Part shown: positions 12,056 through 59,752 of the stretch, piece after piece
How positions within the stretch are numbered: position 1 is the stretch's first letter
How the letters are laid out: every line of letters begins with the position of its first letter
DNA from: Carboxydocellales bacterium
GTDB lineage: Bacteria > Bacillota > GCA-003054495 > Carboxydocellales > JAJZTU01
Assembly: GCA_049302075.1 (NCBI GenBank)
Contig: JBAQLS010000025.1
Location: 125,378 to 189,377 of the forward strand
Length of the DNA: 64,000 bases
Direction: 5' to 3'
Translations under genes and position numbers: made by a program
The notes under the pieces: generated by a model
Databases searched by the model: none
Told to the model about the DNA's origin: nothing
The model's input: the letters and a program-made list of their open reading frames with translations, nothing else

Positions 12056-12079
12056 GGTAGGATGGAAGGATGGTAATCG

Positions 12080-19800: not shown

Positions 19801-20787
19801 ATGAGCAAAGGAACGATATTAAGTGGAATGCGTCCTACTGGCAGGCTGCATATTGGGCATTTAAGCGTACTAGACAACTGGGTAAAATTACAGTCAGAGT
19901 ATAACTGTTTTTTTATGGTGGCGGACTGGCATGCTTTAACCACTAATTTTGAAGATACAACTAATATTAAGCAGCACACCCGGGAAATGGTGATGGACTG
20001 GCTAAGTGCCGGTCTAGACCCGGGAAAAAGCGCTATTTTTGTCCAATCTCATATTCATCAGCATACCGAACTACATTTAATTTTTTCCATGCTAACCCCC
20101 ATCTCCTGGCTGGAGCGCTGTCCTACTTTCAAGGATCAGGTGCAGCAGTTAGGTGAACAAGGCAAAGACATTAATACCTATGGTTTTCTGGGTTATCCCT
20201 TGCTGCAGGCCGCGGACATTTTACTATACAAAGGCAACGCCGTTCCAGTCGGAGAAGACCAGTTACCCCACGTGGAAATGACCAGAGAAGTAGCCAGGCG
20301 CTTTAACTTCATGTACAACACCAGCCTGTTCCCAGAGCCCAAGGCTATTCTGGCCAAGGTATCCATGCTTCCCGGTACAGACGGTCGTAAAATGAGTAAA
20401 TCCTATAACAACGATATCGCCATCGGAGCCCCCAGCTCCGAGATTCAAGCCAAGGTACGCAGCATGATTACCGACCCTGCCCGAGTACGCAAAGATGACC
20501 CTGGCAACCCGGACGTCTGCATAGTCTACACCTACCAAAAAATTTACAACCCTACTGCAACCGAGGAAATTGCCGCCGAATGCCGCAAAGCCGGCATCGG
20601 CTGTGTAGCCTGCAAGAAAAAGCTAGCCGACCAGATGGATCTAGTCCTCACCCCCTACAGGGAGCGTCGTGAAGCACTAACCGCCAACCCCAAACAGGTA
20701 GACGAAATCCTCGCCGCCGGTGACCGCAAAGCAGCCGCCACCGCCGCCAAGACTATCGCAGAAGTACGCAATGTATTAGGTTTTTAA
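19801..20787 (+). CDS. trpS: Tryptophan--tRNA ligase
   Basis: GMRPTGRLHIGH (HIGH) and KMSKS motifs. Confidence 0.95.
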   Translation: MSKGTILSGMRPTGRLHIGHLSVLDNWVKLQSEYNCFFMVADWHALTTNFEDTTNIKQHTREMVMDWLSAGLDPGKSAIFVQSHIHQHTELHLIFSMLTPISWLERCPTFKDQVQQLGEQGKDINTYGFLGYPLLQAADILLYKGNAVPVGEDQLPHVEMTREVARRFNFMYNTSLFPEPKAILAKVSMLPGTDGRKMSKSYNNDIAIGAPSSEIQAKVRSMITDPARVRKDDPGNPDVCIVYTYQKIYNPTATEEIAAECRKAGIGCVACKKKLADQMDLVLTPYRERREALTANPKQVDEILAAGDRKAAATAAKTIAEVRNVLGF

Positions 20788-29324: not shown

Positions 29325-30641
29325 GTGTTTATTAACGAGCTTTATCTTAAGAATTTCAGAGGATTTGATGAAAAAATCTTTAGATTTGATAAACGCTTTT
29401 CTGTGTTTGCTGGTGAAAATGGCAGTGGGAAAACTGCAGTATTGGAAGGATTATGCGTTGCATTAGGTGGTTGGTTATTCGGCTTTGATGGTCTTGAAGG
29501 GAAAGACAAAAGAAATATTTATAAAAATGATATAAGGAAGATTTCAGCAAAAGTATCTTCTGCAATATTGCCTCAAACTCCTGTACAGGTTAAATGTTTA
29601 ACAAAATATAGGGACAGAAATATTGAGTGGAGTAGAAGTGTAGATAAGGTAGGTGGACATACAACATACGGTGGATTGAGCGAGGTTAATAAAGTTACTA
29701 AAGAAATTAGCAACAAAATTTATAAAGCTGAAGATACAGAAATAATATTGCCTATTGTAGCTTATTATAGTGCTGCAAGGTTATGGTCTGAACCAATACA
29801 AAAAAGCAAAAACTATCAAAAGGAAACAATACGTATAAAGGGTTATTCAAGGGCATTAAGTTTCGGACAATCTATTGATAATGTTATGAAATACATTGAC
29901 ATATTAGCACATAGGGCAAACAAGAATCCAGATGACAGTGCTGAATTTGATGCAATAATGGAAGCCTTAAAAAAATGTTTGGATAATATAGTTTCAAATG
30001 TAAAAATTGATTACGATATAAAATCTGCGGAAATCGTAGTAATTCATAATGAAAACTTAAAACTTCATTATTCACAATTAAGCGATGGGTATCGTTGTAT
30101 GATAAGCTTAATTGCTGATATTGCATATAAAATGTCAATATTAAACCCACATCTCAAAGAATTTGCTATTGCCGAAACCACAGGTGTTGTCTTAATTGAT
30201 GAACTAGATTTACATCTGCATCCTAAGTGGCAGCGGGTAGTTGTAAACGATCTTAAAAAAATATTCCCGAAGGTGCAATTTATAGCTACAACACATTCGC
30301 CTTTCATAATTCAATCATTAGAAGATGGTGAACTTATCACATTAGATAGAAGTATAGATATCGAGTACTCTGGAGAAAGCATTGAAGACATTGCTGAAGA
30401 CGTTATGGGAATTGAAATCCCACAATATAGCAAACACAAGCAATCTATGTATGAAGCAGCATCTAAATATTTTGCTGCCCTGAACAATGTTACAACTAAA
30501 GTAGATGTGGAGGAATTAAAGGTAGAGTTGGATTTGTTATCTGCAAAATATGGTGACAACGTAGCTTATTATGCTTTTATTGAACAGAAATATTATGCAA
30601 AAAAAGCTGAGTTGGAGGAAAAAAATGAGACCTGTAGATAA
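29325..30641 (+). CDS. ptuA: Septu-like defense ATPase (PtuA-type ABC/SMC-like AAA ATPase)
   Basis: FRGF..FSVFAGENGSGKTAVLEGL (Walker A), VVLIDELDLHLHP (Walker B) and ATTHSP. The gene is AT-rich and its 3' end overlaps the HNH gene by 17 nt. Confidence 0.7.
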   Translation: MFINELYLKNFRGFDEKIFRFDKRFSVFAGENGSGKTAVLEGLCVALGGWLFGFDGLEGKDKRNIYKNDIRKISAKVSSAILPQTPVQVKCLTKYRDRNIEWSRSVDKVGGHTTYGGLSEVNKVTKEISNKIYKAEDTEIILPIVAYYSAARLWSEPIQKSKNYQKETIRIKGYSRALSFGQSIDNVMKYIDILAHRANKNPDDSAEFDAIMEALKKCLDNIVSNVKIDYDIKSAEIVVIHNENLKLHYSQLSDGYRCMISLIADIAYKMSILNPHLKEFAIAETTGVVLIDELDLHLHPKWQRVVVNDLKKIFPKVQFIATTHSPFIIQSLEDGELITLDRSIDIEYSGESIEDIAEDVMGIEIPQYSKHKQSMYEAASKYFAALNNVTTKVDVEELKVELDLLSAKYGDNVAYYAFIEQKYYAKKAELEEKNETCR

Positions 30642-31323
30642 AGGAGCGTCACCATACGACAGAATTAATCATTATACGGATGCCCAACCTTACTTAGAGA
30701 ATAGAATTGGGATTTACTGTTCTTATTGTGAGTTACCACTAAGACATACCCCTCATGTAGAACATAAGGAATCCAAAAATAGTGGCGGTGCATTGACTGA
30801 TTGGAAAAATCTACTATTTTCTTGTGTTTATTGTAATAGCAGAAAGTTAGAAAAAATAAAAGCTGGACAAGCAAATCTTTGTATTTGGCCTGATAACGAT
30901 AACACATTTATGGCATACAATTACGAAAATGGAATGCCAACTTTGAATGATTCCTACCTTTCACAACTAGGGCAGGCTACATATGATAAAGCCAAAAAAC
31001 TTTTTGATATAGTGATGCTAGATAATGTACCTTCAAACCCGAAAGATAAAGATAGACGTTGGAAAAATAGAGTGGAAGCGTACAGTATTGCAAAGGATCT
31101 ACTTAGTGATTGGATAGTTATGAAGGAAACAGAATATAAGGATAAAACCATTAAAAGTATTAAAAATAATGCTATTTATTCAGGCTTTTTCTCAGTTTGG
31201 ATGACGGTTTTTAAAGACGAGGTTGAAATTAAGAATAAACTAATTGATGTTTTTATTGGAGCAGCAAAAAATTGTTTCGATGCAAATGGTAATCCTATAA
31301 GAAGAAATGGTGGAATTATATAA
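30625..31323 (+). CDS. ptuB: Septu-like HNH endonuclease (PtuB / TIGR02646-type)
   Basis: CSYCE..HVEHK..NLLFSCVYCNSRK is an HNH/Zn-finger pattern. GGAGGA lies 5 nt before ATG 30625; the track start at 30571 is probably too early. Confidence 0.7.
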   Translation: MRPVDKGASPYDRINHYTDAQPYLENRIGIYCSYCELPLRHTPHVEHKESKNSGGALTDWKNLLFSCVYCNSRKLEKIKAGQANLCIWPDNDNTFMAYNYENGMPTLNDSYLSQLGQATYDKAKKLFDIVMLDNVPSNPKDKDRRWKNRVEAYSIAKDLLSDWIVMKETEYKDKTIKSIKNNAIYSGFFSVWMTVFKDEVEIKNKLIDVFIGAAKNCFDANGNPIRRNGGII

Positions 31324-36525: not shown

Positions 36526-37011
36526 TTGAGGTTCCGGGTAAAGCATAGGGAGGCGGAATACCTACTGGTTAATGTGTTATTACTGGGAGCTATGCTGCTA
36601 GTTATAGTTCAGTTGGCCCAAAGTCAGGATCCGCTGGAACGGGTGTATCAAGTTAGTAAACTTTTGGAGGATCAACAGAACTCTGTTTTTGCAGCCCAGA
36701 TAGACCACGAAGCAGCTGGCAATGCGGTTACAGGAGAGCTTAGCTTATGCTTGGAAAACTACTTTTCTATAGCCGGAATTAAAGTAATTATCAATGGGGT
36801 GGAAAAGGCTAATTTTCTAACCAAAGAACTTACTCTTCAGGTTAGTCCAGGAGACCAAATTGCCATAGACGGAAGTTCCTGCTCACAAGCAGTTAGAGTT
36901 GAGGTTAGCAATACCTCCCCTAGAATTATCAGCCCTAAGTTGGGGAGCATCATCCAATTACAGGGGGATGTAAAATATTTAAACCCAGTTCAGGTCAAGC
37001 TTGCCTATTAA
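36526..37011 (+). CDS. Hypothetical membrane-anchored protein
   Basis: One N-terminal TM helix. I recognise no family. Confidence 0.45.
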   Translation: MRFRVKHREAEYLLVNVLLLGAMLLVIVQLAQSQDPLERVYQVSKLLEDQQNSVFAAQIDHEAAGNAVTGELSLCLENYFSIAGIKVIINGVEKANFLTKELTLQVSPGDQIAIDGSSCSQAVRVEVSNTSPRIISPKLGSIIQLQGDVKYLNPVQVKLAY

Positions 37012-37029
37012 CCCAGCCTGGTTTATAAT
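37001..37029 (+). promoter_or_regulatory. Sigma-A-type promoter of the hutP-like-aroH operon
   Basis: TTGCCT, a 17-nt spacer, then TATAAT. Confidence 0.5.
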
Positions 37030-37037
37030 TATGGAGA

Positions 37038-37135
37038 TAGGTAAGACGGTAGAATGGTAGGATTTAAGGCCATAGCATCGATAGGTAAAGAGGCCAAAGT
37101 ATATCTACACTCCGTCCGGGAGTGTTTTGTTTTTT
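37038..37135 (+). promoter_or_regulatory. UAG-rich leader (5 UAG in 47 nt) followed by an intrinsic terminator: candidate protein-dependent attenuator
   Basis: TAG occurs at 37038, 37050, 37058, 37073 and 37082. The hairpin ACACTCC-GTCCG-GGAGTGT (37107-37125) is followed by TTTGTTTTTT, immediately before the RBS of the hutP-like gene. Confidence 0.5.
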
Positions 37136-37154
37136 AAACTGTGAGGTGAAAGGT

Positions 37155-37580
37155 ATGCATTCAGATAGCAAAAAAATAGCCGGAGTGGCTATCCGCATGG
37201 CCCTAAGTGAAGACAGAGAAGAAGAAAAGGCGCTTAAAGCTGCCTTTGCCAAAGAGGGGATTAAAACAGCGGCCGTGGATTATGGTGGTGAGTTCATCAG
37301 TTCTGTGAACAAGGTGGTAGAGCGGGCGGTTGTTGCTGCCAAGCGTGAAGGTGTAATCAAAGATACCCATTCCGATGAAGGAGCTGTTGCCGGAGCAACT
37401 AGAGAGGCTCTTTCCCAGATTATCAACAAAGCCATCGGGTTAAATATCGGTGGTAAAATCGGCATTGCCCACCGCCAAGATCACATTAGTGTTGCTGTTT
37501 TCTTTGGTATTGGGTTACTTCACTTGGATGAGGTAGCAATTGGTTTGGGGCATCGGGCGGTAAATAGTTGTATTAGTTAG
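37155..37580 (+). CDS. HutP-family RNA-binding protein paralog (track ORF starts at 37122)
   Basis: From memory, it aligns along its length with B. subtilis HutP (IGRLSV/IAGVAI; GVI..E/GVIKD; HALYHATMEAL/EGAVAGATREAL; the C-terminal G.G..H region). GAGGTGAAAGG precedes ATG 37155. Confidence 0.75.
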   Translation: MHSDSKKIAGVAIRMALSEDREEEKALKAAFAKEGIKTAAVDYGGEFISSVNKVVERAVVAAKREGVIKDTHSDEGAVAGATREALSQIINKAIGLNIGGKIGIAHRQDHISVAVFFGIGLLHLDEVAIGLGHRAVNSCIS

Positions 37581-37598
37581 TTTAGGAGGACAGCAGGG

Positions 37599-37973
37599 AT
37601 GAAGCAGCAAGCAGTAAGAGGCATTAGGGGAGCAATTAATATTACTGAAAACACTAAAGCAGCTATTACTACAGCTACAAGGGAGCTACTAGCGGAAACT
37701 CTAAAGCAAAACGAATTAGACCCGGCAGATATTGCCAGCATCTTTTTTACCGTTACTCCAGATATTAATGCCGAATTCCCGGCTGTAGCGGCCAGAGAGT
37801 TAGGCTTAACTTGGGTACCGTTACTATGTTGTACCGAAATCAATATACCCGGAAGTCTACCCTTAGTAATTCGTATCCTCATCCACGCTAACACCACCCG
37901 AAGTCAGCAGGAAATCAAGCATATTTACCTCGGGGAAGCAGTAAGGTTAAGACCGGATATTAACAAGGCTTAA
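37599..37973 (+). CDS. aroH: Monofunctional chorismate mutase, AroH class
   Basis: RGIRGAINI..FFTVTPDINAEFPAVAARELG..IRILIH..YLGEAVRLRPD closely parallels B. subtilis AroH. Confidence 0.9.
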   Translation: MKQQAVRGIRGAINITENTKAAITTATRELLAETLKQNELDPADIASIFFTVTPDINAEFPAVAARELGLTWVPLLCCTEINIPGSLPLVIRILIHANTTRSQQEIKHIYLGEAVRLRPDINKA

Positions 37974-38001: not shown

Positions 38002-38123
38002 GCAGGCTGTTAAAAAACCCGTATAGCGCGGAAACAGCTTTAACAAGGCCGCAGGCGTACTATGTGTACGTTGAGGACCTTGTTAAAGCTGGTGACAAAG
38101 CTAGACGGGGATTTTTAACAGCC
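38002..38123 (-). repeat. Full-length repeat copy in reverse orientation
   Basis: GCAGGCTGTTAAAAAACCCGTATAGCGCG...GCTAGACGGGGATTTTTAACAGCC. The internal stem is CAGCTTTAACAAGG / CCTTGTTAAAGCTG, a perfect 14 bp. Confidence 0.85.
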
Positions 38124-38153
38124 TTGACAGCCTACTTTGTCCTGTGATAAAGT
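38124..38153 (+). promoter_or_regulatory. Probable trp operon promoter
   Basis: TTGACA (38124-38129), a 17-nt spacer, then the extended -10 TGATAAAGT. The -35 box starts at the nucleotide after the repeat ends. Confidence 0.45.
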
Positions 38154-38180: not shown

Positions 38181-38228
38181 AAGATAAGATGAGATGAGTT
38201 GAGTAAAGTTGAGAAGAGCTGAGATGAG
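38181..38228 (+). promoter_or_regulatory. TRAP (MtrB) binding site: 10 NAG triplets (7 GAG, 3 AAG) at an exact 5-nt period
   Basis: aag-at-aag-at-gag-at-gag-tt-gag-ta-aag-tt-gag-aa-gag-ct-gag-at-gag, read directly from the sequence. Confidence 0.75.
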
Positions 38229-38254
38229 GCATGGAAACCGAAAGTCGGTATAAT

Positions 38255-38283
38255 CCAGTGCTCATTTGGGTGCTGGTTTTTTT
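38255..38283 (+). terminator. trp leader attenuator terminator
   Basis: CCAGTGC-TCATTTGG-GTGCTGG (with G.U pairs) followed by TTTTTTT, about 40 nt before the trpE ATG. Confidence 0.6.
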
Positions 38284-38324: not shown

Positions 38325-39917
38325 ATGCTGTTTCCCAGTTTTGACGAGTACGTAGAATTAAGTAAAGCCTATGATATTGTTCCTGTTTATCAGGAAGTGC
38401 TGGTAGATATGGAAACGCCGATTTCTATCTACAAAAAATTAGGCCACCATCAGCATAGTAACCAGTCGCAGAATAACCAGTCGCAGAATAACCAGTCGGA
38501 AAGTAACCTGTTGAATAACTGGCAGGATAGTCATCCACGGGATACTAATTCTCAGGATAGTACTCCTCAGGAGAGTTACCTATTAGAAAGTGTTGAGGGT
38601 GGGGAACACCTTGCTAGATATTCCTTTATCGGCTTGGAGCCTTTCCTAAGTTTCCGCTTTAAGGATGGGGCAGGTGTTATTAACCGGGAGGGCCGGGAAG
38701 AAAAAGTAACTGGCAAACCCCTGGCTATTCTAGAGCAACTAATGAGCGGATACAAGGCCCCACTACTGGAAAACCTGCCTAGGTTTTACGGAGGTGCAGT
38801 GGGTTATTTTGGCTATGATTTAACTCGCACCTGGGAGGAATTGCCAAGCTGTGCTAATGATGACCTTGGGCTTCCCGACTGCCATTTTGTTTTGACTAAC
38901 CTAGTTTTAATATTCGACCATGTTCAACATAAGTTGAAAATAGTATATAATTCTAGAGTGGGGCAGGATGCCGAGTTAAGCTACCAGCAGGCTCAAGAAC
39001 ACATTAACCGGATTTTGGTCCTGTTAGCCCAGCCTAACTCCGGCAACCACCACCAGGTAACGACTCAAGGTGCTGCTTACATTACCTCCAACCTGACCAA
39101 GGAGCAATTTATAACCATGGTGGAGCAAGCCAAGGATTACATCCGGGCTGGGGATATCTTTCAGGTGGTATTGTCCCAACGCTTTCAGGCTCCCCTAGCA
39201 GCAGATCCCTTTGATATCTACCGCTCCTTACGCCGAATAAATCCTGCTCCCTACCTCTATTACCTGGATTTGGGGGATACTCAATTAATTGGTTCCTCCC
39301 CGGAAATGTTAGTCCGGGTGGAAGATGGACGGGTGGAAACCAGACCCCTAGCCGGGACTAGGCCCCGGGGTAATAATACTCGGGAAGATCAGCAACTAGC
39401 GGCAGAACTATTAGCCGATGAGAAGGAAAAGGCAGAACATGTAATGCTGGTGGATTTAGGCCGTAATGATCTGGGTCGGGTTTGTAACTATAGTTCGGTG
39501 GAAGTAACTGAGTTTATGCAAGTTGAGCGCTATTCCCATGTGATGCATATGGTCACCCAAGTGGAAGGCCATTTGGGAGCAGGCCATAGCCAGTATGATG
39601 CTCTGGAAGCCTGTTTTCCGGCCGGTACAGTTTCCGGGGCTCCCAAGATCAGAGCAATGGAAATCATTGCTGAGTTAGAGCCTAATAACAGGGGCGCTTA
39701 TGCCGGAGCCATCGGCTACCTGAGTTTTACCGGTAATATGGACACCTGTATCACCATTAGAACCATAGTGGTAAGCAATGGACAGCTTTATGTTCAGGCG
39801 GGAGCCGGGATAGTGGCTGATTCTGTGCCCGAGTTAGAATATCAAGAGACGGTGAATAAAGCCATGGCCCTATTAAAAACACTACAAATGCAGCAAGAGA
39901 ATAAAGCCTTGGCTTAA
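38325..39917 (+). CDS. trpE: Anthranilate synthase component I, with a ~43-aa low-complexity N-terminal insertion
   Basis: It has LLESVEGGE and TRPLAGTRPRG (the Ala-type motif of TrpE), and is the first gene of trpEGDCFBA. Confidence 0.9.
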   Translation: MLFPSFDEYVELSKAYDIVPVYQEVLVDMETPISIYKKLGHHQHSNQSQNNQSQNNQSESNLLNNWQDSHPRDTNSQDSTPQESYLLESVEGGEHLARYSFIGLEPFLSFRFKDGAGVINREGREEKVTGKPLAILEQLMSGYKAPLLENLPRFYGGAVGYFGYDLTRTWEELPSCANDDLGLPDCHFVLTNLVLIFDHVQHKLKIVYNSRVGQDAELSYQQAQEHINRILVLLAQPNSGNHHQVTTQGAAYITSNLTKEQFITMVEQAKDYIRAGDIFQVVLSQRFQAPLAADPFDIYRSLRRINPAPYLYYLDLGDTQLIGSSPEMLVRVEDGRVETRPLAGTRPRGNNTREDQQLAAELLADEKEKAEHVMLVDLGRNDLGRVCNYSSVEVTEFMQVERYSHVMHMVTQVEGHLGAGHSQYDALEACFPAGTVSGAPKIRAMEIIAELEPNNRGAYAGAIGYLSFTGNMDTCITIRTIVVSNGQLYVQAGAGIVADSVPELEYQETVNKAMALLKTLQMQQENKALA

Positions 39918-39932
39918 CAGGAGGGTTTTACC

Positions 39933-40502
39933 GTGATTTTAATGATTGACAACTATGATTCCTTTACCTTTAACCTAGTACAGTACCTGGGGGAGTTAGG
40001 GGAAGAAATTAAAGTTTACCGCAATGATAAAATTACCTGTGCCGAAATAGACCAGCTAGGTCCACAGCATATTATCATATCCCCTGGACCCTGTACCCCT
40101 AATGAAGCAGGGATTTCTCTAGAGGTTATAGCTAAGTTTGCCGGTAAAATACCTATTCTGGGAGTTTGCTTGGGACACCAGTCCATTGCCCAAAGCTTCG
40201 GCGGAAAAGTTGTCCGGGCTGAGCGGCTGATGCATGGCAAGACCTCCCCGATATACCACGATGGCCAAACCATATTTCGGGGTTTACCTTCACCCTTTAC
40301 CGCCACCCGCTATCATTCCTTAATCGTAGAAAAGGAAAGCCTGCCCCCGTGTTTAGAAATCACTGCCCAAACGGCAGAAGGGGAAATTATGGCCCTGCGG
40401 CATAAGCATTTGCCAGTAGAAGGAGTCCAGTTCCACCCCGAATCTATTTTAACCGAGCATGGTAAAACAATGCTCAGTAATTTCTTAAAGCAAACAGTCT
40501 GA
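39933..40502 (+). CDS. trpG: Anthranilate synthase component II / glutamine amidotransferase (TrpG/PabA type)
   Basis: [15 protein letters not shown] and GVCLGHQ catalytic-Cys motifs. Confidence 0.9.
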
Positions 40503-40569
40503 TAAGATATCGTTCAGCTAGCTGAGAGGGCGATAAGTACGCCTGTGGAGAAGAGAAGGAGAGATTAGT

Positions 40570-41604
40570 ATGAGTAGACTTAAAGAGGCAATTTCCAAAA
40601 TCATTACCGGAAGTAACCTATCCATGGCTGAAGCAAGTGGGGCCATGCAGGAGATATTTAGTGGCCAGGCCACTGACAGCCAAATAGCTGCCTTTATTAC
40701 CGGACTTCGCATGAAGGGAGAGACTCCCGAGGAGATTGCCGGTTGTGCCTTTGCCATGCGAGAAAAAGCTACACCAATTCAGACCAAGCATGAGTTTTTT
40801 GTTGATACCTGTGGAACTGGTGGGGATGGTGCCCATACCTTTAATATTTCCACAACGGTAGCTTTGGTCTTGGCCGGGGCAGGTTTGCCGGTGGCCAAAC
40901 ATGGTAACCGTTCGGTGTCCAGCCGTAGCGGCAGTGCAGATGTCCTGGAGGCTTTAGGTGTTAATTTGAGTCTTAACCCAGAACAGGTAGGCTGCTGTCT
41001 GGATGAAATAGGGTTAGCATTTCTGTTTGCTCCCGCTTTACATGGGGCGATGAAATATGCGGCTGGGCCAAGGAAGGAACTGGGTATCCGTACTATTTTT
41101 AATATTCTGGGGCCGTTAACTAATCCAGCCCAAGCCCAGGCTCAGGTTGTTGGGGTATTTGACCCCTTGCTCACTGAGACTATGGCTCAGGTGTTGGCTA
41201 AATTAGGCACCCAACAGGCCTTTGTGGTCCATGGGGCGCAGGGCTTGGATGAAGTAGCCCTTTGCGGTCCGAGTAAAGTGTCTCGGATGACTGCTGGTGC
41301 AATAGATACTTTTTACCTTGATCCGGTGGAGTATGGTCTACATCGTGCCGATAACAAAGCTCTGGTCGGAGGATCAGCAAAGGAAAACGCCCAAATAACC
41401 ACCCAAGTACTCCAGGGTGTTCGGGGAGCCTGCCGGGATGTTGTGTTAGTTAATGCCGCTTTAGGCTTTATAGCTGGAAACAAAGCTGAGGAAATAGCTG
41501 AGGGTATCGAACTAGCGGCCAAGTGTATAGATTCCGGTGCTGCCTTTGCCAAACTCGAGCAACTAGTTGGTTTCACCCGGGCTATAAATAGTCCGATAGC
41601 CTAA
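40570..41604 (+). CDS. trpD: Anthranilate phosphoribosyltransferase
   Basis: DTCGTGGDG and KHGNRSVSS motifs. Confidence 0.9.
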   Translation: MSRLKEAISKIITGSNLSMAEASGAMQEIFSGQATDSQIAAFITGLRMKGETPEEIAGCAFAMREKATPIQTKHEFFVDTCGTGGDGAHTFNISTTVALVLAGAGLPVAKHGNRSVSSRSGSADVLEALGVNLSLNPEQVGCCLDEIGLAFLFAPALHGAMKYAAGPRKELGIRTIFNILGPLTNPAQAQAQVVGVFDPLLTETMAQVLAKLGTQQAFVVHGAQGLDEVALCGPSKVSRMTAGAIDTFYLDPVEYGLHRADNKALVGGSAKENAQITTQVLQGVRGACRDVVLVNAALGFIAGNKAEEIAEGIELAAKCIDSGAAFAKLEQLVGFTRAINSPIA

Positions 41605-41629
41605 ACAGACGGAGGGGAGTCAGACCAGC

Positions 41630-42439
41630 ATGGGTAATATTCTAGATCAAATTGTCGCCCATAAACGCACTGAAGTGGCGGCTGACCGTGAGGCTTTACC
41701 CTTAGCCATAATTCAAAGGGAAATTAGCAAACTTCCTCCTACCAGGTCTTTAAGCAAGGTGCTCCGGAAACCCGGGGAGGTTGCCCTGCTTGCGGAAATT
41801 AAAAAAGCCTCACCCTCCAAAGGGGTAATTAGGGCCGACTTTGATGCTGTGGAGATTGCCAAAATATATACTCAAGCAGGGGCAGCAGCGATATCCGTGC
41901 TCACTGACCATAAGTTTTTTCAAGGAAGCCCAGACTACTTGCGGCAGGTAAGGGAAGTAACTAACCTTCCTCTGTTACGGAAGGAATTTATTATCGACGC
42001 TTATCAAATCTACCAAGCTAGGCTGCTGGGCGCAGATGCTATTTTGCTAATTGCCGGACTTCTAGAAACCCCACAGCTAGTCCGGTTTCAAGAGCTAGCA
42101 GGGGAATTAGGTCTGGAATGCCTGGTGGAGGTTCATACCGAGGCGGAACTAGCTAAAGCCAGGGCAATTGGGGCTAAGTTAATCGGCATCAATAACCGTG
42201 ACCTGACAGTATTTAAAACGGATTTGCACACCACTATTCGGCTGAAAAGCCTAATTACTGATCCCGAGGTGATTGTAGTCAGCGAAAGTGGGATAAATAC
42301 AAGAGCAGATGTGCTGCTCCTAGCTCAGCACGGGGTAGATGCCATGCTGGTTGGGGAGGCCCTAATGCGTCAAGGGGATGTTGCTGCCCAGCTTGCTTAT
42401 TTACTCAAAGACCAGCCAGCAGCTAAGGTGGTGGGGTAG
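41630..42439 (+). CDS. trpC: Indole-3-glycerol phosphate synthase
   Basis: EIKKASPSKG, LRKEFIID and the INNRDL region. Confidence 0.9.
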   Translation: MGNILDQIVAHKRTEVAADREALPLAIIQREISKLPPTRSLSKVLRKPGEVALLAEIKKASPSKGVIRADFDAVEIAKIYTQAGAAAISVLTDHKFFQGSPDYLRQVREVTNLPLLRKEFIIDAYQIYQARLLGADAILLIAGLLETPQLVRFQELAGELGLECLVEVHTEAELAKARAIGAKLIGINNRDLTVFKTDLHTTIRLKSLITDPEVIVVSESGINTRADVLLLAQHGVDAMLVGEALMRQGDVAAQLAYLLKDQPAAKVVG

Positions 42440-43054
42440 GTGACCAGGGTAAAAATATGTGGGATTACCGACCTGACTATAGCGTTAGGTGCTGTGGCTG
42501 CAGGAGCGGATGCTATAGGTTTTGTCTTCGCCGAAAGTCGGCGGAGAATATCTCCGAATGCAGCTCAGTTAATAATTAAGAATTTACCTCCCTTTGTGAC
42601 CACTGTCGGTGTTTTTGTTGATGAAGCTCTGACCACCTTGAATGAGATTGCCAATTATTGTGGCTTAGATGTAGTCCAACTCCACGGCTCGGAGTCCCCT
42701 CAGTATTGTCAGCAGGTAAAACGGCCAGTGCTCAAGGCTATACGCATAGCCACAGCAGCAGACCTGGAACAAATGGCTGAGTATGAGGTTCGGGGTTTTT
42801 TGCTGGATACTTTTATCCCCGGCCAGCTCGGGGGTACCGGGCAGACCTTTCCCTGGCACTTGGCTAGGGCAGGGGATAAAAACCACCCCATAATTGTTGC
42901 CGGTGGGCTGACTCCGGATAATGTGCAACAAGCCCTAGCCCAAGCTGAACCCTTTGGGGTGGATGTGAGTAGTGGGGTGGAAACAGACGGAATTAAGGAT
43001 TTAGCTAAAATCCAAAAATTTATTAACCGGGTAAGGAGGTTTAGGGATGAATAA
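42440..43054 (+). CDS. trpF: Phosphoribosylanthranilate isomerase
   Basis: KICGIT.., ..VQLHG.. and GGL.P.NV motifs. Confidence 0.9.
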
Positions 43055-44255
43055 TTTACCAACTGCTATAGATAGCTTGCCAGATCAAAACGGACGCTTT
43101 GGACACTTTGGCGGCAGGTTTGTCCCTGAGACTTTGATGCCTGCTTTAATCGAAGTGGAACAAGCCTATAACCAAGCCAAAAATGACCCTGCCTTTCAGG
43201 CAGAGCTAGCTTATTACCTTCAGCAATATGTTGGCCGGGAGAATCCCCTGTATTATGCCGAGCGGTTAAGTACCCACTGTGGAGGAGCTAAGATTTATCT
43301 GAAGCGGGAAGACTTAAACCACACTGGTGCCCATAAAATCAATAACACCCTTGGCCAGGCCATGCTAGCTAAGCGGATGGGCAAAAAGAAGGTTATCGCC
43401 GAGACAGGAGCGGGTCAGCACGGAGTTGCCACAGCTACTGCCGCTGCCCTCTTTGGCATGGAATGTACGGTGTTCATGGGTACTGAGGATATTAGACGCC
43501 AAGAGCTTAATGTCTTTCGCATGAAACTACTGGGGGCCAAAGTAGAGCCCGTTACCACAGGAAGCTGTACTCTTAAAGATGCTTGTAATGAAGCTATGCG
43601 CCAGTGGGTTTCCAATGTAAATGATACCTTTTATATTTTCGGTACTGCGGCCGGACCTCACCCTTGGCCCTTGATGGTTAGGGATTTCCAGGCAGTTATT
43701 GGCCAAGAGACTAGGCGGCAAATGCTGGATCAGGAAGGCCGTCTCCCAGATGTAGTCTTAGCCTGTGTGGGCGGGGGAAGTAATTCCATCGGCATGTTTT
43801 ATCCCTTTCTAAATGACCCGGTTAAGCTAGTAGGGGTTGAGGCTGCCGGACTTGGTCTAGACACTAACAAGCACGCCGCTACTTTAACTAAAGGTTCCCG
43901 AGGAGTGCTGCACGGTTCAATGAGCTACTTGCTCCAGGATGGGGACGGTCAGGTGTTGGAGGCTCATTCCATCTCGGCAGGCTTGGACTACCCAGGTGTA
44001 GGCCCTGAACACTGTTACCTAAAGGAAAGTGGCCGGGTACAATACCAGGCGGTAACTGATGCCGAAGCTTTAGAGGCAGTTCAGGTTTTATGCCGCACCG
44101 AGGGCATAATTCCAGCTTTAGAAAGCGCCCATGCCATCGCTCAGGCTCTAAAGCTGGCACCTACAATGAATAATAACCAGCTCCTCGCAGTTTGTCTTTC
44201 CGGTAGAGGGGACAAGGATGTCCACACTTTAGCCCGGGAATTGGGGGTGGAGTAG
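43047..44255 (+). CDS. trpB: Tryptophan synthase beta chain
   Basis: [14 protein letters not shown] (PLP lysine) and GGGSNSIG motifs. Confidence 0.95.
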
Positions 44256-45101
44256 ATGAATAGTCAACACGGCAACCCAGCTGACCTAACAGGACGTCAA
44301 GGTGTGCAACTGCTGGAAAAAACCTTTAAGCAGCTCCGGGAACAAGGTGAAAAAGCGTTAATTGCCTATATTACCGCCGGAGACCCCAGTTTAGAGCAGA
44401 CAGAAAAAATCGTGCTTAGTATAGCCGAGGCGGGTGCTAATGTCATCGAATTAGGTATACCTTATTCTGACCCGGTGGCTGATGGACCGATAATCCAACA
44501 GGCCTCCCAACGAGCACTGCAGGCTGGAACCACTGTGGAAGGGATTCTAACTTTAGTTTCCAAGCTTCGTTCCCGGACGGCAGTTCCCCTGGTGCTGATG
44601 ACTTATATTAACCCCATCCTCCAATATGGAGTGGAACGCTTTATGCAAAAAGCTTATTCAGTAGGGGTAAATGCCTTGATAATTCCCGACTTGCCTGTGG
44701 AGGAGTGGGTGTTAATAGAGGACGCAGCCCAGCAGCACCAAATTGGGTTAATACCCTTACTAGCGCCCACTACACCAGCTGAGCGCATTCAAAAGATTTG
44801 TCCCCGGGCTAGGGGTTTTATCTACTGTGTTTCCCTCACTGGAGTAACGGGAATGCGCACAGAATTACCACCCCAGCTTAATGAATTTTTAGCTCGGGTT
44901 CGAGCAGCCACCAGCTTACCTATGGCAGTAGGTTTTGGAATATCTACTCCCCAGCAGGTGCTTCAGCTAAAGGACCACTGTGATGGAGTGGTGGTAGGTA
45001 GTGCCATCGTCAACCTGTTAGCTGAAGTTGGAGCAAAGCCGGATGGTTTAGCCCAAATCCGAAATTATATAGCATCCTTGCGCCAGGCTCTGGATAGTTA
45101 A
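44256..45101 (+). CDS. trpA: Tryptophan synthase alpha chain
   Basis: ELGIPYSDPVADGPIIQ motif; last gene of the operon. Confidence 0.9.
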   Translation: MNSQHGNPADLTGRQGVQLLEKTFKQLREQGEKALIAYITAGDPSLEQTEKIVLSIAEAGANVIELGIPYSDPVADGPIIQQASQRALQAGTTVEGILTLVSKLRSRTAVPLVLMTYINPILQYGVERFMQKAYSVGVNALIIPDLPVEEWVLIEDAAQQHQIGLIPLLAPTTPAERIQKICPRARGFIYCVSLTGVTGMRTELPPQLNEFLARVRAATSLPMAVGFGISTPQQVLQLKDHCDGVVVGSAIVNLLAEVGAKPDGLAQIRNYIASLRQALDS

Positions 45102-55580: not shown

Positions 55581-57104
55581 TCAATTATTTTTTCGGCATA
55601 ACTCAATAGCTGTCCTTAAGGCTCTTCCTTTGTGGAGAGTCTCTTCATATTCCAGCTGGGGGTCAGAGTCAGCCACAATGCCGCCACCTACCTGAAAGTA
55701 AGCCCAACCGTCTTTAATCACCAAGGTGCGAATGACAATATTTAAGTCAGCATCGCCACTAAAAGCAATGTATCCCATGGAACCGGTATAAATACCCCGT
55801 TTGACCGGCTCCAACTCTTCGATAATTTCCATTGCCCGAATTTTTGGGGCCCCGGTGATTGAACCACCAGGGAAACTAGCTTGAAGGACATCAATGATGC
55901 TTTTGTCCGCAGGTAGTTGGCCTTCAACAGTAGAGACCAGGTGAAATACAGTTGGGTATTCCTCCAGTCTAATTAACTCAGGCACGTATACTGTCCCGGT
56001 AGTACACACTCGGCCCAGATCGTTGCGCATTAAGTCAATAATCATCACCAACTCAGCTCGGTCCTTGCTGCTATTGAGCAGTTCCTCCCGGTTAGCCTGG
56101 TCGGCAGCTGGGTTCTGCCCTCTGGGCCGGGTGCCTTTAATGGGTCGGGTTTCCACTCGAGAATCTTTGACTAGCAGATAACGTTCCGGGGAAGCGCTGG
56201 CAATCACCACCTCCGGGTAGTTTAGATAACCGGCAAAAGGAGCGGGATTAATAGTACGCAGCACCTTATACAATTCAAAGGGCTCAGTAGGGAGGGGAGC
56301 GTCAAAACGCTGAGTCAGGTTGACCTGAAAAATATCCCCGGCTGCAATATAATCTTTGGCTGCCTGAACCCCTTGACAGTATTCGATCGGAGTAAAATGC
56401 GTCTTGAGAAAGCCATCTAAGTCGGCACTGGCATCGGGTAGCTGGGCCGCTTTGCCTGTGGCAAGTTCTAACGGTTGTTCCGCTAATTGTTGTTTTAGTG
56501 GATGCTCCAAGGACTGGTCTTTTTTATCCAGCAGCTTAGCTGCTGCTATCATTCGCAGTTCAGCATATTCCTTCCGTCGGGCAGTGTCAGCTTCCGGCAG
56601 ACCAGTGGAGGAAATTAGCCATTGTTTTTCTTCGTGGTCATAAATGAGCACAGTATCATAAAACCCCTGAATACAATCGGCTATTTCTAAATCATCTTTG
56701 GCCAGGGAAGGCAGTACTTCTAAATGTGTACCCAGATCATAGGCAAAATAGCCCACACAACCTCCTAAAAAGGGAGGGAGTCCGGTCAGCCTGGGGATGG
56801 AGTATCTTCCCAGTAAAGCCTTCAGCGTTTGCCAGGGGTCACCGTTAAAATATTCTCTGCCATCCTTTTTATTAAGCATAATCTGGTTACCTTTACTCTC
56901 CATAGTTATGAATGGGTCAAAACCTATAAAAGAGTATTTTCCCAGACCTTGGGGATTCATCCCGCTATCTAGAAAAAAACTGTAAGGAAGGTTTTTTAGT
57001 TGCTGATACACTTCCACCGGCAAAATTTTAGAGCTGAATTTCCGCACTAAGGGCTGGGCCATTATGACAGTCTGATTATTTACGGTAAGGGTTTGGCTAG
57101 ACAT
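55581..57104 (-). CDS. pabB: Aminodeoxychorismate synthase component I
   Basis: A chorismate-binding enzyme with TRPIKGTRPRG. PabB has a Lys at this position where TrpE has Ala. GGAGG precedes the ATG. Confidence 0.8.
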   Translation of the reverse strand: MSSQTLTVNNQTVIMAQPLVRKFSSKILPVEVYQQLKNLPYSFFLDSGMNPQGLGKYSFIGFDPFITMESKGNQIMLNKKDGREYFNGDPWQTLKALLGRYSIPRLTGLPPFLGGCVGYFAYDLGTHLEVLPSLAKDDLEIADCIQGFYDTVLIYDHEEKQWLISSTGLPEADTARRKEYAELRMIAAAKLLDKKDQSLEHPLKQQLAEQPLELATGKAAQLPDASADLDGFLKTHFTPIEYCQGVQAAKDYIAAGDIFQVNLTQRFDAPLPTEPFELYKVLRTINPAPFAGYLNYPEVVIASASPERYLLVKDSRVETRPIKGTRPRGQNPAADQANREELLNSSKDRAELVMIIDLMRNDLGRVCTTGTVYVPELIRLEEYPTVFHLVSTVEGQLPADKSIIDVLQASFPGGSITGAPKIRAMEIIEELEPVKRGIYTGSMGYIAFSGDADLNIVIRTLVIKDGWAYFQVGGGIVADSDPQLEYEETLHKGRALRTAIELCRKNN

Positions 57105-57133: not shown

Positions 57134-57160
57134 AAAAAATACCAGCACAAAGTACTGGTA
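57134..57160 (-). terminator. pabB leader attenuator terminator
   Basis: On the minus strand, UACCAGUAC-UUU-GUGCUGGUA (9 bp including one wobble) is followed by UUUUUUA, about 30 nt before the pabB ATG. Confidence 0.6.
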
Positions 57161-57222
57161 CTCACACCGCTATCTCCGAGTCGTCTCAACTCAACTAATC
57201 TATCCTCATCTCAGCTCTGCTC
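57161..57222 (-). promoter_or_regulatory. Second TRAP-type site: 8 (G/U)AG triplets at an exact 5-nt period plus 3 more irregularly spaced
   Basis: The minus strand reads GAG-ca-GAG-ct-GAG-at-GAG-ga-TAG-at-TAG-tt-GAG-tt-GAG ... GAG-a-TAG ... GAG. It shares the 14-mer GAGCTGAGATGAGG with the trpE leader. Confidence 0.7.
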
Positions 57223-57263
57223 AAAATTAAATTGTCTGCGTAAGCTAATGTATTAGCAGTTTT

Positions 57264-57352: not shown

Positions 57353-57480
57353 TAGCATAATGGTTGTAGGATGGTTGGTTAAAGTAGAATTAGTACAAAA
57401 AAGTAGAACAGTAGAACAGTAGGATGGATAGCATGGTTATGAGTTTGACCAGGGCACTTCCATTTTGGAGTGCTTTTTTT
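57353..57480 (+). promoter_or_regulatory. UAG-rich leader (8 UAG + 1 GAG in ~90 nt) followed by an intrinsic terminator, upstream of aroF-tyrA-aroA
   Basis: TAG occurs at 57353, 57367, 57385, 57391, 57404, 57412, 57420 and 57429, including TAGAACAGTAGAACAGTAGGATGGATAG. The hairpin GCACTTCC-ATTTT-GGAGTGC (57454-57473) is followed by TTTTTTT. Confidence 0.5.
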
Positions 57481-57572
57481 GATACTTAGGAAATATGCTT
57501 GGAATAATAGGTATACTAATGTAAACTACCAACCCTACAAAAATAATTCGAATTTATTTTAAGGAGGATAAC

Positions 57573-58589
57573 ATGATAGTAGTAATGAATCACGGGGCCA
57601 AGGAAGAAGAAGTTAAAAAAGTAATTGATAAATTAACTAATGCGGGTTTTCAAATTCATCTATCCGAAGGTGTGGAAAGAACTATCATTGGGGCGATTGG
57701 CGATAAAACCCGACTTTCCCAACTAGCCATTGAGGCTATGAACGGGGTGGATAAATTGGTACCTATTCTCCAGCAATTTAAGCTGGTTGGACGAGAGTTT
57801 AAATCCCAGAATACCATAGTGAAAGTTGGAAATATTGCTATTGGCGGTGAACAGTTACATATCATGGCTGGACCCTGTGCCGTGGAAAGCAGGGAGCAAC
57901 TAATCGAGACAGCTCACGAAGTAAAAGAGGCTGGCGCAACTATGCTCAGAGGCGGCGCCTATAAACCTAGAACCTCCCCCTATGTTTTCCAAGGGTTAGA
58001 GGAAGAGGGGCTGAAAATTCTAGCCGAGGCTAGGGAGCAGACCGGTCTTCCCATTGTTACCGAGGTAGTAGATCCGAGAACTGTGGAACTAGTTGCTAAT
58101 TATGCCGATATGCTCCAAATCGGTGCTCGCAATATGCAGAACTTTTTCTTATTGAAAGAAGTAGCTAAGGCCAATAAACCAGTGCTATTAAAGCGGGGCC
58201 CTTCTGCTACTATTGAAGAATGGCTAATGGCTGCCGAATACATCATGGCGGGAGGTAATTACGATGTAGTGCTCTGTGAGCGCGGTATCCGCACCTATGA
58301 AACTTACACCCGTAATACCCTAGACTTAAACGCGGTTCCCGCTGTCAAACACCTCTCCCACCTGCCAGTAATAGTTGACCCCAGTCATGGTACCGGAAAG
58401 TGGAAAATGGTAGCTCCCATGGCCAGAGCATCTATAGCTGCCGGAGCAGACGGTTTAATGGTGGAAGTTCATTACAACCCAGCTGAGGCTTTGTGCGATG
58501 GTTCTCAATCCCTTACTCCCGAGAATTTCCGAGTTTTAATGCAGGAAATTCGGCAAATAGCTCCGGTGATGGGTCGGAAACTGGTCTAG
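57573..58589 (+). CDS. aroF: 3-deoxy-7-phosphoheptulonate (DAHP) synthase, class I-beta, with an N-terminal ferredoxin-like regulatory domain
   Basis: The core is KDO8PS-like (..GPCAVES.., GAYKPRTSPY, KRG.., DPSHG). An extra ~70-aa N-terminal domain (MIVVMNHGAKEEEV..) is present. Confidence 0.9.
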   Translation: MIVVMNHGAKEEEVKKVIDKLTNAGFQIHLSEGVERTIIGAIGDKTRLSQLAIEAMNGVDKLVPILQQFKLVGREFKSQNTIVKVGNIAIGGEQLHIMAGPCAVESREQLIETAHEVKEAGATMLRGGAYKPRTSPYVFQGLEEEGLKILAEAREQTGLPIVTEVVDPRTVELVANYADMLQIGARNMQNFFLLKEVAKANKPVLLKRGPSATIEEWLMAAEYIMAGGNYDVVLCERGIRTYETYTRNTLDLNAVPAVKHLSHLPVIVDPSHGTGKWKMVAPMARASIAAGADGLMVEVHYNPAEALCDGSQSLTPENFRVLMQEIRQIAPVMGRKLV

Positions 58590-58608
58590 GTGGGAAAGGA
58601 AGAAAACT

Positions 58609-59718
58609 ATGTCCCAGATTTTTAAGCGGATCTGTATAATCGGGGTTGGACTAATTGGCGGCTCCCTTGGTATGGCTGTTATCCAGCGTGGTTTAGCCGG
58701 TGAGGTGGTTGGTGTGGTTAGGAACCAGGAGAATTTGGAACTTGCTCTGGCCACTGCAGCTATCCACCGAGGTACTCCTGACCCAATAGCAGGAGTGGAA
58801 GGTGCGGACTTGGTAGTTTTGGCTACGCCAGTAGGCGCTTATGCTCCTATCTTAAAGCTAATCAAGCCCTACCTGTCCCCGGATGCTGTGATCACCGATG
58901 TAGGCAGCACTAAGGAAAAGGTAGTCCGGGAGGCTGAAGAAATTTTAGGTGATCAGTCTGCTTTTATTGGCGGGCACCCTATGGCCGGGTCGGAGCAGGC
59001 CGGGGTTAAGGGTGCCGACCCTTACCTTTTTGAAAATGCCGTTTATTTGTTAACTCCAACCGTACTAACCAGCCAGTCTGCCTTACATAAAATAGCTAAC
59101 CTGTGCTCTGCCCTAGGGGCTAAGGTTATGACTTTTACTCCAGAGGAACATGATCAGATGGTTGCTGCCGTAAGCCACTTACCCCATTTAATTGCCGCAA
59201 CCTTGGTTAACACTGTCAGTAAACTACAGCAGGAATTTCCTCAAACCCTTCAATTGGCAGCAGGTGGATTTAAGGATACTACCAGGGTAGCCATGGGGAA
59301 TCCCACTATGTGGCGGGATATCTTGCTTTCTAACCAAGCCCATGTGTTAGGCTTAATTACTAAATTTCAGCAAACCCTAACCCTGCTAGAGGAGGATATT
59401 CGGGAGGCTGCTAGTGCCGACCTGGTTGGTAAACTAGAAAGCGCTCAGGAGCTTCGCCAGAAGTTGCCTAAAAAACTTAAAGGATACTGGCCGGAATTAT
59501 ACGAAATAGTAGTTACCGTACCCGACAAACCAGGGATGATTGCCCAGATAGCAGCTATCCTAGCAGAGGAACAAATTAATATTGCCGATATAGAAATCCT
59601 GCGGGTGCGGGAAGGGGAAGGCGGGACAATTCGCCTTGGCTTTACCCTCCCAGGTAATGATGAAGCCGCAATAAGGATTTTGCGTTCCAAAGGAATTATT
59701 GCCAAACCGAGGCATTAG
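58609..59718 (+). CDS. tyrA: Prephenate dehydrogenase with a C-terminal ACT domain
   Basis: IIGVGLIGGSLG Rossmann motif, GGHPMAGSE, and a C-terminal ACT-like segment (VTVPDKPGMIAQI..). Confidence 0.9.
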   Translation: MSQIFKRICIIGVGLIGGSLGMAVIQRGLAGEVVGVVRNQENLELALATAAIHRGTPDPIAGVEGADLVVLATPVGAYAPILKLIKPYLSPDAVITDVGSTKEKVVREAEEILGDQSAFIGGHPMAGSEQAGVKGADPYLFENAVYLLTPTVLTSQSALHKIANLCSALGAKVMTFTPEEHDQMVAAVSHLPHLIAATLVNTVSKLQQEFPQTLQLAAGGFKDTTRVAMGNPTMWRDILLSNQAHVLGLITKFQQTLTLLEEDIREAASADLVGKLESAQELRQKLPKKLKGYWPELYEIVVTVPDKPGMIAQIAAILAEEQINIADIEILRVREGEGGTIRLGFTLPGNDEAAIRILRSKGIIAKPRH

Positions 59719-59752
59719 GCCAACCTAATCAGGGCTTTCAAGGAGAAACAAT

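Follow-up and report, generated by a model that had tools for sequence, protein, structure and literature searches.

We analysed a 64-kb stretch of DNA from a Carboxydocellales bacterium (contig JBAQLS010000025.1, positions 125,378 to 189,377; the whole stretch is hereafter called the window), in which a gene of the HutP family is followed by aroH, encoding chorismate mutase, and then by the trp operon. An initial annotation, made from the letters of the window, had suggested that this hutP-like gene encodes a ligand-responsive RNA-binding regulator of aromatic amino-acid biosynthesis, acting on two UAG-rich leaders: one upstream of its own operon and the other upstream of aroF-tyrA-aroA. Here we compare the protein and both leaders with their counterparts in other genomes, whose loci carry L-numbers below. 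The features of the system in the window are as follows.

37001–37029, +: sigma-70-type promoter, TTGCCT (37001–37006), 17-nt spacing, TATAAT (37024–37029); consensus scan, 10 of 12 matches
37038–37066, +: predicted protein-binding site of the hutP leader, units UAAGACGG (37042–37049), UAGAAUGG (37050–37057) and UAGGAUUU (37058–37065); top match of a position weight matrix (PWM) in the window
37067–37106, +: spacer with a local hairpin (GGCC 37068–37071 with GGCC 37092–37095) and two non-conserved UAGs (37073, 37082); folding
37107–37135, +: intrinsic terminator ACACUCC-GUCCG-GGAGUGU (37107–37125) plus U-run; terminator scan
37155–37580, +: hutP-like gene, 141 residues, proposed RNA-binding regulator; PF09021, E = 2e-50, full length
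37599–37973, +: aroH, monofunctional chorismate mutase; PF07736, TIGR01796 equivalog
57353–57393, +: upstream unit cluster of the aroF leader, GGUAGCAUAAUGG, UAGGAUGG (57367–57374), UAG 57385 and UAG 57391, which may overlap the promoter; sequence
57400–57436, +: predicted main binding site of the aroF leader, UAGAACAG, UAGAACAG, UAGGAUGG, (A)UAGCAUGG; second-best PWM match
57451–57483, +: intrinsic terminator of the aroF leader, GGGCACTTCC-ATTTT-GGAGTGCTT (as RNA, GGGCACUUCC-AUUUU-GGAGUGCUU; 57451–57476); terminator scan
57573–61036, +: aroF (DAHP synthase), tyrA (prephenate dehydrogenase with ACT domain) and aroA (EPSP synthase), the putatively regulated operon; Pfam
12054–12082, +: possible third site, UAGGAUGG-AAGGAUGG-UAAUCG-GUG, over the Shine–Dalgarno (SD) sequence and GTG start of aroB, immediately 3′ of the aroK stop codon; third-best PWM match, 14.7 bits

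The leader of the hutP-like/aroH operon is 125 nt long, and an SD sequence precedes the ATG of the hutP-like gene at 37155. The two genes are separated by 18 nt that hold no terminator, which we read as co-transcription. The trpEGDCFBA genes (38325–45101) lie 3′ of aroH and have their own promoter (TTGACA-18-TAAAGT, 38124–38153) and a separate leader. Between aroH and this promoter, a long and almost perfect inverted repeat (ctgttaaaaaacccgt...acggggatttttaacag, 38004–38124), for which the sole Rfam match is a spurious microRNA, is probably where the hutP-aroH transcript ends. Also present in the window are aroE, aroC, aroK and aroB (the last two assigned by Pfam) and a second anthranilate-synthase-I/PabB-like gene, which is divergently transcribed from the minus strand (55581–57104). 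The initial annotation had described the promoter, the UAG-rich leader, the terminator, the HutP-family reading frame, aroH, the trp operon and the second leader, all of which we recovered in place; its remark that no hut genes lie nearby holds for the annotated open reading frames (ORFs) of the 64-kb window, among which we found none.

The HutP-like protein and its gene neighbourhood

The protein encoded in the window aligns to PF09021 over the entire profile (positions 1–128 of 128; 170.7 bits for a cut-off of 25), and this family model scores the Clostridial type above its namesake (170.7 and 159.7 bits versus 111.3 bits for Bacillus subtilis HutP). The NCBIfam HutP equivalog NF002838, by contrast, assigns 253 bits to B. 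subtilis HutP (cut-off 155) and yields no match to the window protein even at E ≤ 1. Identity to Bacillus HutP is approximately 20–25%, a phmmer search of all PDB sequences with the window protein retrieved no HutP, and a 16-sequence profile reached HutP at E = 0.026 only. Because pairwise searching failed, the relationship had to rest on hhalign (E = 2.9e-4, 25% identity over 112 columns) and on the fold. The AlphaFold2 monomer model (predicted local distance difference test, pLDDT, 85.5; predicted template modelling score, pTM, 0.83) was compared with the PDB using Foldseek, and the best 11 matches are all HutP chains (probability 1.00, TM 0.65–0.76), whereas the next fold has a TM of 0.45 or less. 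The window protein is predicted from this model to adopt the HutP fold. The initial annotation's term, a HutP paralog, is apt as regards PF09021 and the fold; sequence comparison places the protein in a deeply divergent HutP subfamily rather than among close paralogs, as it fails NF002838 and carries glycines at histidine positions of HutP.

These positions bear on the ligand. Both hhalign and MAFFT align His73 and His77 of HutP with Gly76 and Gly80, and His138 with Ala135. Gly76 and Gly80 are invariant in alignments A1–A3; among representatives at 50% identity, Gly76 is replaced by Ala in P0246 and P0257, and P0263, P0290 and P0340 differ too, changes that were called conservative. In HutP, the three histidines reportedly hold the Mg2+/L-histidine ligand, as Kumarevel et al. 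are said to have described in 2005. The Gly/Gly/Ala configuration therefore suggests another effector, and the ligand of the HutP-like protein is likely to differ from L-histidine.

The Clostridial type also outnumbers the protein after which the family is named. Word-indexed searches of sequence clusters returned 6,350 and 4,780 clusters for two Clostridial queries (sets that probably overlap), versus 768 for B. subtilis HutP, all of them from Bacillales. Databases, naming by homology alone, call the Clostridial proteins either 'HutP family protein' or 'hut operon positive regulator' and nothing more specific.

The initial annotation had proposed surveying other Clostridia for hutP-like genes accompanied by aroH, aroF and UAG-rich leaders. 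A scan with one genome per species listed 80 loci encoding proteins 71–93% identical to that of the window, from Peptococcaceae/Desulfotomaculia, Thermincola, Moorella/Neomoorella, Pelotomaculum, Syntrophomonadaceae, relatives of Desulfosporosinus and many metagenome-assembled genomes (MAGs). The survey bore the proposal out: in 71 of the 80, the hutP-like gene has aroH directly 3′ of it, and repeats are kept in orthologous aroF and hutP leaders. Beyond aroH, the genes that follow are trpE and its successors in 24 loci and aroF-tyrA-aroA in 37, with an aroF-(pheA)-tyrA-aroA form occurring too.

Several neighbourhoods stand apart from this arrangement or flank it. In Clostridium tetani, the hutP-like gene (L201, 5001–9742) is located upstream of a TM1266-like gene and of the [FeFe]-hydrogenase maturase genes hydE, hydG and hydF, followed by a gene for an energy-coupling factor (ECF) S-component. 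HydG consumes tyrosine, and this neighbourhood would fit an aromatic-sensing regulator. In the window, an ORF of 161 residues (36526–37011) ends within the hutP promoter; it has no Pfam or NCBIfam match, and weak homologs (25–48% identity) occupy the equivalent spot 5′ of hutP in about 20 related loci, where they usually come after an HI0933-like flavoprotein gene and lrgAB. Farther away, a class-I (Trp/Tyr-type) tRNA synthetase gene of 328 codons (19801–20787) is probably trpS; 17 kb separate it from the trp operon farther downstream, an M50-peptidase-like ORF directly precedes it, and it has no obvious leader. An AAA_15/AAA_21 ATPase gene that overlaps an HNH-endonuclease gene (29325–31323) resembles a small module of the defence or toxin type that has been inserted between housekeeping genes.

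The RNA signal and its distribution

Five TAG triplets span 47 nt of the hutP leader (37038, 37050, 37058, 37073 and 37082), as the initial annotation had counted, and the window-wide frequency of 0.0164 per nt predicts approximately 0.8. At least five TAGs per 50 nt occur at only four plus-strand places in the 64 kb, two being these leaders and the other two being inside genes. TAG density by itself is suggestive, not decisive. Alignment of the aroF leaders of related loci defined a sharper signal, G-UAG-NAYGG-UAG-NAYGG-YAG-GG or, with its leading GG, GG-YAG-NAYGG-YAG-NAYGG-YAG-GG. The predicted recognition unit is an information-rich 8-nt YAG-NAYGG repeated three times, and not merely UAG-rich sequence. 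A terminator follows 15–45 nt past the three units; its stem is usually CACUCC...GGAGUG, which is the stem found in the window and is present again in most motif instances of other genomes. Orthologous sites lie 5′ of aroF in 25 loci, and the three-unit motif is also present in the hutP leaders of a subset of loci.

The claim of a UAG-rich leader thus needs rewording in one respect. The repeats are real, and the conserved core of the hutP leader includes a UAA at 37042 and just two of the five UAGs, those at 37050 and 37058. The closest relative, L001, retains this core as AAGACGG-UAG(A/G)AUGG-UAGG; even there, conservation fails for the other three TAGs (37038, 37073 and 37082), and the spacer stretch 37067–37106 is missing or altered. 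Similar repeats are found in the hutP leaders of L005–L010, L020, L030, L045, L053, L067 and L069, and relatives' hutP leaders carry a similarly placed ttgc..-17-tataat promoter. The hutP leaders of Pelotomaculum/Desulfotomaculaceae (L012, L013, L022, L034, L061 and L075; 200 nt upstream) keep a promoter and a conserved terminator, AACACUCC...GGAGUGU-AUUUU, with at most one UAGGAU unit. The aroF leader of the window is richer, with eight TAGs between 57353 and 57431, and additional upstream YAGNAYGG units are detected 20–120 nt upstream of the site in 17 of 38 leaders (0.6 per 114 nt versus 0.039 in the background).

To score sites, we used a PWM with 31 bits of information built from 37 instances, all outside the window. 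In 100 simulations, the chance maximum per 64 kb on both strands averaged 6.5 bits (sd 3.9), the highest being 18.0 bits. The two best matches in the window are the hutP-aroH leader (24.0 bits at 37038) and the aroF leader (21.1 bits at 57400). The third, over the aroB start, scores within the null range at 14.7 bits. The SD sequence of aroH in the window (UAGGAGGACAGCAGG) was considered as a further site and dropped, as it reaches 2.9 bits. Across the 80 related loci (1.19 Mb, both strands), the PWM gave 31 matches of at least 13 bits, about 10 of which belonged to the training set: every one lies on the sense strand, with 25 of them in the 400 nt that precede aroF and the other 6 upstream of hutP, and no match falls elsewhere.

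An exact-pattern scan of 185,579 species genomes extended the signal to other genes. The Bacillota matches have exactly three units and a terminator, and precede aroF-(pheA)-tyrA-aroA or aroH-aroF/tyrA operons, ABC transporters of the PF04392 (ABC_sub_bind)/BPD_transp_2 type, DctPQM TRAP-T transporters and a Liv-type binding protein. The PF04392/BPD_transp_2 type is presumably the one that KEGG labels 'putative tryptophan/tyrosine transport system'. In seven of these loci, a hutP-like gene whose product is 53–56% identical to that of the window adjoins the motif: it is immediately 5′ of the motif and an ABC transporter in L082, L093 (Clostridium amylolyticum), L118, L131 and L194, and the order is hutP-motif-aroH in L096 (Thermaerobacter) and L109. 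L232, which was retrieved through its Clostridium hutP-like protein alone, carries, in the interval separating that gene from an ABC transporter of the same type, a 25.5-bit site, additional units 5′ of it and a terminator. The protein gene and the RNA signal stand beside each other in these loci and so travel together in at least four gene arrangements. As judged from these comparisons, the candidate regulon is wider than the initial annotation envisaged, taking in transporters and, in some lineages, SD-overlapping sites.

Outside Bacillota, L148, a Fusobacteriales MAG (GC 25%), has a three-unit site 5′ of a gene for DAHP synthase. The exact-pattern scan also returned many long TAGGACGG octamer arrays from Gemmatimonadota, Bacteroidales and actinomycetes, which we set aside as an unrelated simple repeat. 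These arrays (variants TAAGACGG, TAGGACTG and CAGGACGG), often with an inverted array nearby, are found in L081, L083, L089, L094, L097, L108, L121, L160, L179 and many others, in Gemmatimonadota, Bacteroidales, Balneolales and Streptomyces/Dactylosporangium; their unit equals the Clostridial site unit, by coincidence or not.

The trp genes carry a different signal. Some 9–11 (G/U)AG triplets with 2–3 nt spacers over an antiterminator are the pattern of TRAP. In the trpE leader (38181–38283, plus strand), approximately 10–11 (G/U/A)AG triplets (38181–38228), spaced by 2–3 nt, precede a terminator; the minus-strand anthranilate-synthase-like gene has a leader of this design too (57137–57230, triplets 57163–57230). 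In related genomes (Moorella, Thermincola, Pelotomaculum and others), 22 trpE leaders share the conserved terminator CCGGUGCUCAUUUGAGCACCGG and carry approximately 10–11 (G/U)AG triplets with 2–3 nt spacers. The hutP and aroF leaders, with 3–5 units and 5-nt spacers, depart from this pattern, and the suggestion that their control operates in parallel with TRAP agrees with the distinct signals of the two sets of leaders. A tblastn search did not find the TRAP gene mtrB in the window; the 80 loci listed by a genome scan, whose query is 99% identical to a Geobacillus protein, are all from Bacilli and uninformative on Clostridia. Rfam 15 gave no match at gathering score anywhere in the window, and for the hutP and aroF leaders it gave, at E ≤ 1, just spurious sub-threshold matches outside the repeats.

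Direction of control and alternative readings

In the aroF leader, the 5′ arm and loop of the terminator can pair with the last repeat (UAGGAUGGA/UCCAUUUUG) to form an antiterminator. Folding assigns the minimum free energy of the free leader to this antiterminator form (−26.8 kcal/mol) and yields the terminator once the repeats are blocked. In many leaders, removing the 3′ arm of the terminator lets its 5′ arm pair with the G-rich tail of the last unit. Between third repeats and terminator 5′ arms, cognate combinations pair more strongly than non-cognate ones (−8.68 versus −7.77 kcal/mol, permutation p = 0.001), although the statistic was computed on related sequences and overstates their independence, which tempers the case for an antiterminator. 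The TRAP-T leaders have both strands changed to match, such that GGCAGGGUAA pairs with UUACCGGCC. Within the aroF-type group, the antiterminator helix GGGGG/CUCCC is nearly invariant, and covariation is informative only between classes.

A second line of evidence comes from the SD sequences. Two-unit sites overlie the SD sequence of aroH in 6 of 70 loci and that of aroF in 3 of 33 loci, for about 0.003 expected per 48 nt; they belong to the Moorella group, to L009 and to the lineages of L045 and L069. Since sites overlap the SD sequences of aroH, aroF or aroB, binding there can only repress. These sites, the pairing of the last repeat with the terminator arm and the folding of the aroF leader lead us to favour repression. 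Binding probably represses, with a TRAP-like logic that is the reverse of HutP antitermination. The HutP-like attenuation put forward in the initial annotation keeps its design of repeats, leader and terminator, probably with a sign opposite to that of HutP.

We consider it likely, from the leaders and their comparison, that an aromatic-specialised regulator with the HutP fold binds the repeats, blocks an antiterminator or an SD sequence and represses the genes downstream. The 141-residue protein would be a single-stranded-RNA-binding protein, probably hexameric. Once loaded with its effector, it would bind the three tandem 8-nt YAG-NAYGG units on the nascent leader RNA, and in many leaders its other face may take the second, upstream cluster. 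In aroF-type leaders, the G-rich tail of the last unit would serve as the 5′ strand of the antiterminator, the partner of the terminator 5′ arm (CACUCC); the bound protein would sequester this strand, allow the terminator to form and stop transcription before aroF-(pheA)-tyrA-aroA. Transcription would likewise be halted before hutP-aroH, amounting to negative autoregulation in the source organism. In some lineages, units over the SD sequence of aroH, aroF or aroB would block translation, and the tryptophan-specific genes would be left to the separate TRAP-type signal. We infer that the effector is most likely Phe and/or Tyr, or another shared aromatic metabolite or end product, because the putative regulon takes in uptake systems, chorismate mutase, pheA and tyrA besides the common pathway, and because trp has separate TRAP-type control.

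Several observations weigh against this proposal. Even with no protein present, the terminator is the predicted fold of the window's hutP leader, for which only a weak antiterminator exists. Nor do the leaders of the ABC transporters in L082, L118 and L131 have a convincing one (cognate pairing −4.9 versus a row mean of −7.4). Without a strong antiterminator in these two kinds of leader, the sign of control could vary by leader or be reversed. Between the terminator of the aroF leader and the aroF start, a promoter-like TTGATA-18-AATAAT with an upstream TG (57479–57508) could, if functional, give attenuation-independent expression that bypasses the terminator. The aroB site recurs solely in L203 (14.6 bits), the closest relative, and is absent from relatives farther away; the 380-nt gap searched near the C. 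tetani homolog holds no 8-nt-repeat motif. Many hutP-like genes also lack repeats in their own leaders, so autoregulation appears, by this comparison, to be lineage-specific: what the initial annotation called an autoregulated system has repeats in the hutP leader of the source organism and extends to a subset of lineages.

The default folding of the hutP and ABC-transporter leaders is what an opposite logic would predict, in which binding of the protein would suppress termination and so switch the genes on, either because its apo form is active when aromatics are scarce or because it senses a precursor such as chorismate or prephenate. HutP itself is an antiterminator (PMC2425495; PMC12591593), and substrate-induced uptake is plausible in amino-acid-fermenting Clostridia. 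However, the repeats lie upstream of the terminator and not inside it, unlike HutP sites; the last unit overlaps the predicted antiterminator strand in aroF and TRAP-T leaders; and the SD-overlapping sites at aroH, aroF and aroB, being repressive only, would be incoherent with activation through the leaders. We regard activation as improbable overall.

The repeats could alternatively be a cis-acting RNA element read by a riboswitch ligand, by another protein or by TRAP, the HutP-like protein serving, for example, as a ligand-binding partner of chorismate mutase. The tight hutP-aroH pairing fits a protein–protein role as well, and TRAP too reads (G/U)AG triplets and has leaders of its type in the same window. 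Yet tandem NAG triplets with no conserved fold are the hallmark of HutP- or TRAP-type sites and not of riboswitches, Rfam has no match, and three units with 5-nt spacers do not resemble the many triplets with 2–3 nt spacers of TRAP. Moreover, the motif adjoins hutP-like genes in four contexts, including transporter operons that lack aroH. We infer from this linkage that the HutP-like protein is the binder and give a different reader a rather poor chance, a little below that of activation. Mere coincidence of a UAG-rich stretch with ordinary terminators has a negligible probability: five TAGs per 47 nt are not extreme, and further clusters of this kind sit inside plus-strand genes, but a PWM derived from other genomes picks these leaders above all 100 simulated windows, and the conservation of a strand- and position-specific site in dozens of genomes refutes it as well.

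Returning to the repressor proposal, its broader form carries less assurance. We lean slightly towards a widespread second TRAP-like attenuator built on the HutP fold, a Phe/Tyr- or aromatic-sensing ring protein reading 3 + 3 units, which would shut down the common pathway, the Phe/Tyr branch and uptake across Clostridia while TRAP handles Trp; most PF09021 members would then be such a regulator. The recruitment of the family to the aromatic pathway, with NAG-repeat leaders and terminators at hutP-aroH and aroF-tyrA-aroA, had been suggested in the initial annotation and gains support from the comparison of genomes.

Significance and comparison with known systems

Few protein families are known to control bacterial operons through nascent leader RNA (TRAP, PyrR, HutP, BglG/SacY, ANTAR and a few others), and each of them has served as a model of RNA and small-molecule recognition by proteins. 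To our knowledge, neither T-boxes nor known repressors account for the control of aroF in a large part of Clostridia. If our proposal is correct, the HutP scaffold has acquired a new effector specificity and a reversed output, and the system would supply the missing regulator of the common aromatic pathway and the Phe/Tyr branch in acetogens, sulfate reducers, syntrophs and Clostridium sensu stricto. The supraoperon studied here would then hold a natural pair of parallel ring-protein attenuators, TRAP and HutP-like. Thousands of 'hut operon positive regulator' annotations would be corrected, and the PF04392-type ABC and DctPQM transporters that bear the signal would gain functional hints. A compact and portable protein/RNA switch of this kind might also find use in engineering Moorella or Clostridium production strains. 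In a 2025 review of RNA-binding antiterminators, HutP features solely as the regulator of hut in Bacilli, and our literature search returned no relevant paper joining HutP to chorismate mutase, aromatic amino acids, aroF or Clostridial regulation.

Among known systems, T-boxes are the usual attenuation control of aromatic biosynthesis and transport operons in Firmicutes; they are large, structured RNAs that read tRNA, and none matches these leaders. PyrR is closer in its logic, as a ligand-activated RNA binder that favours terminators in several leaders of one pathway and is encoded by the first gene of its own operon. It differs in belonging to an unrelated family and in reading a structured stem-loop, the anti-antiterminator, instead of single-stranded tandem repeats.

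The likeness to TRAP goes further. TRAP is an amino-acid-activated ring protein that binds tandem (G/U)AG triplets in leaders, blocks an antiterminator and elsewhere an SD sequence, and works in the same metabolic area, all of which we propose here for the HutP-like protein. The two have unrelated folds, however, and TRAP binds 9–11 triplets with 2–3 nt spacers whereas the present sites have 3 (+3) units of 8 nt. Their regulons would also differ, that of TRAP being trp and that proposed here the common pathway, the Phe/Tyr branch and transporters.

The HutP of B. subtilis (PDB 1VEA, 1WMQ and 3BOY) shares its Pfam family and, by prediction, its fold with the window protein. The HutP hexamer binds three NAG triplets on each of two faces (PMC2425495; PMC12591593), and the three NAGs per site described here, with a second cluster in 17 of the 38 leaders, mirror these two faces. 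Apparently common to both systems are NAG triplets in threes, often in two clusters and near an intrinsic terminator, and a regulator gene that comes first in the operon which it controls or, here, would control. The differences concern nearly every functional property: HutP is encoded with the hutH, hutU, hutI and hutG genes that it controls, whereas the signal described here precedes aro genes and transporters; HutP repeats have a period of 7 with free spacers of about 4 nt, compared with a period of 8 and a conserved NAYGG spacer; HutP sites lie within or flank the terminator stem, whereas those described here are upstream of the terminator; and HutP binding leads to read-through, as opposed to probable termination. 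In summary, the novelty lies in the pathway, the recognition unit, the probable effector and, probably, the sign of control; the scaffold and its general mode of RNA reading have precedents.

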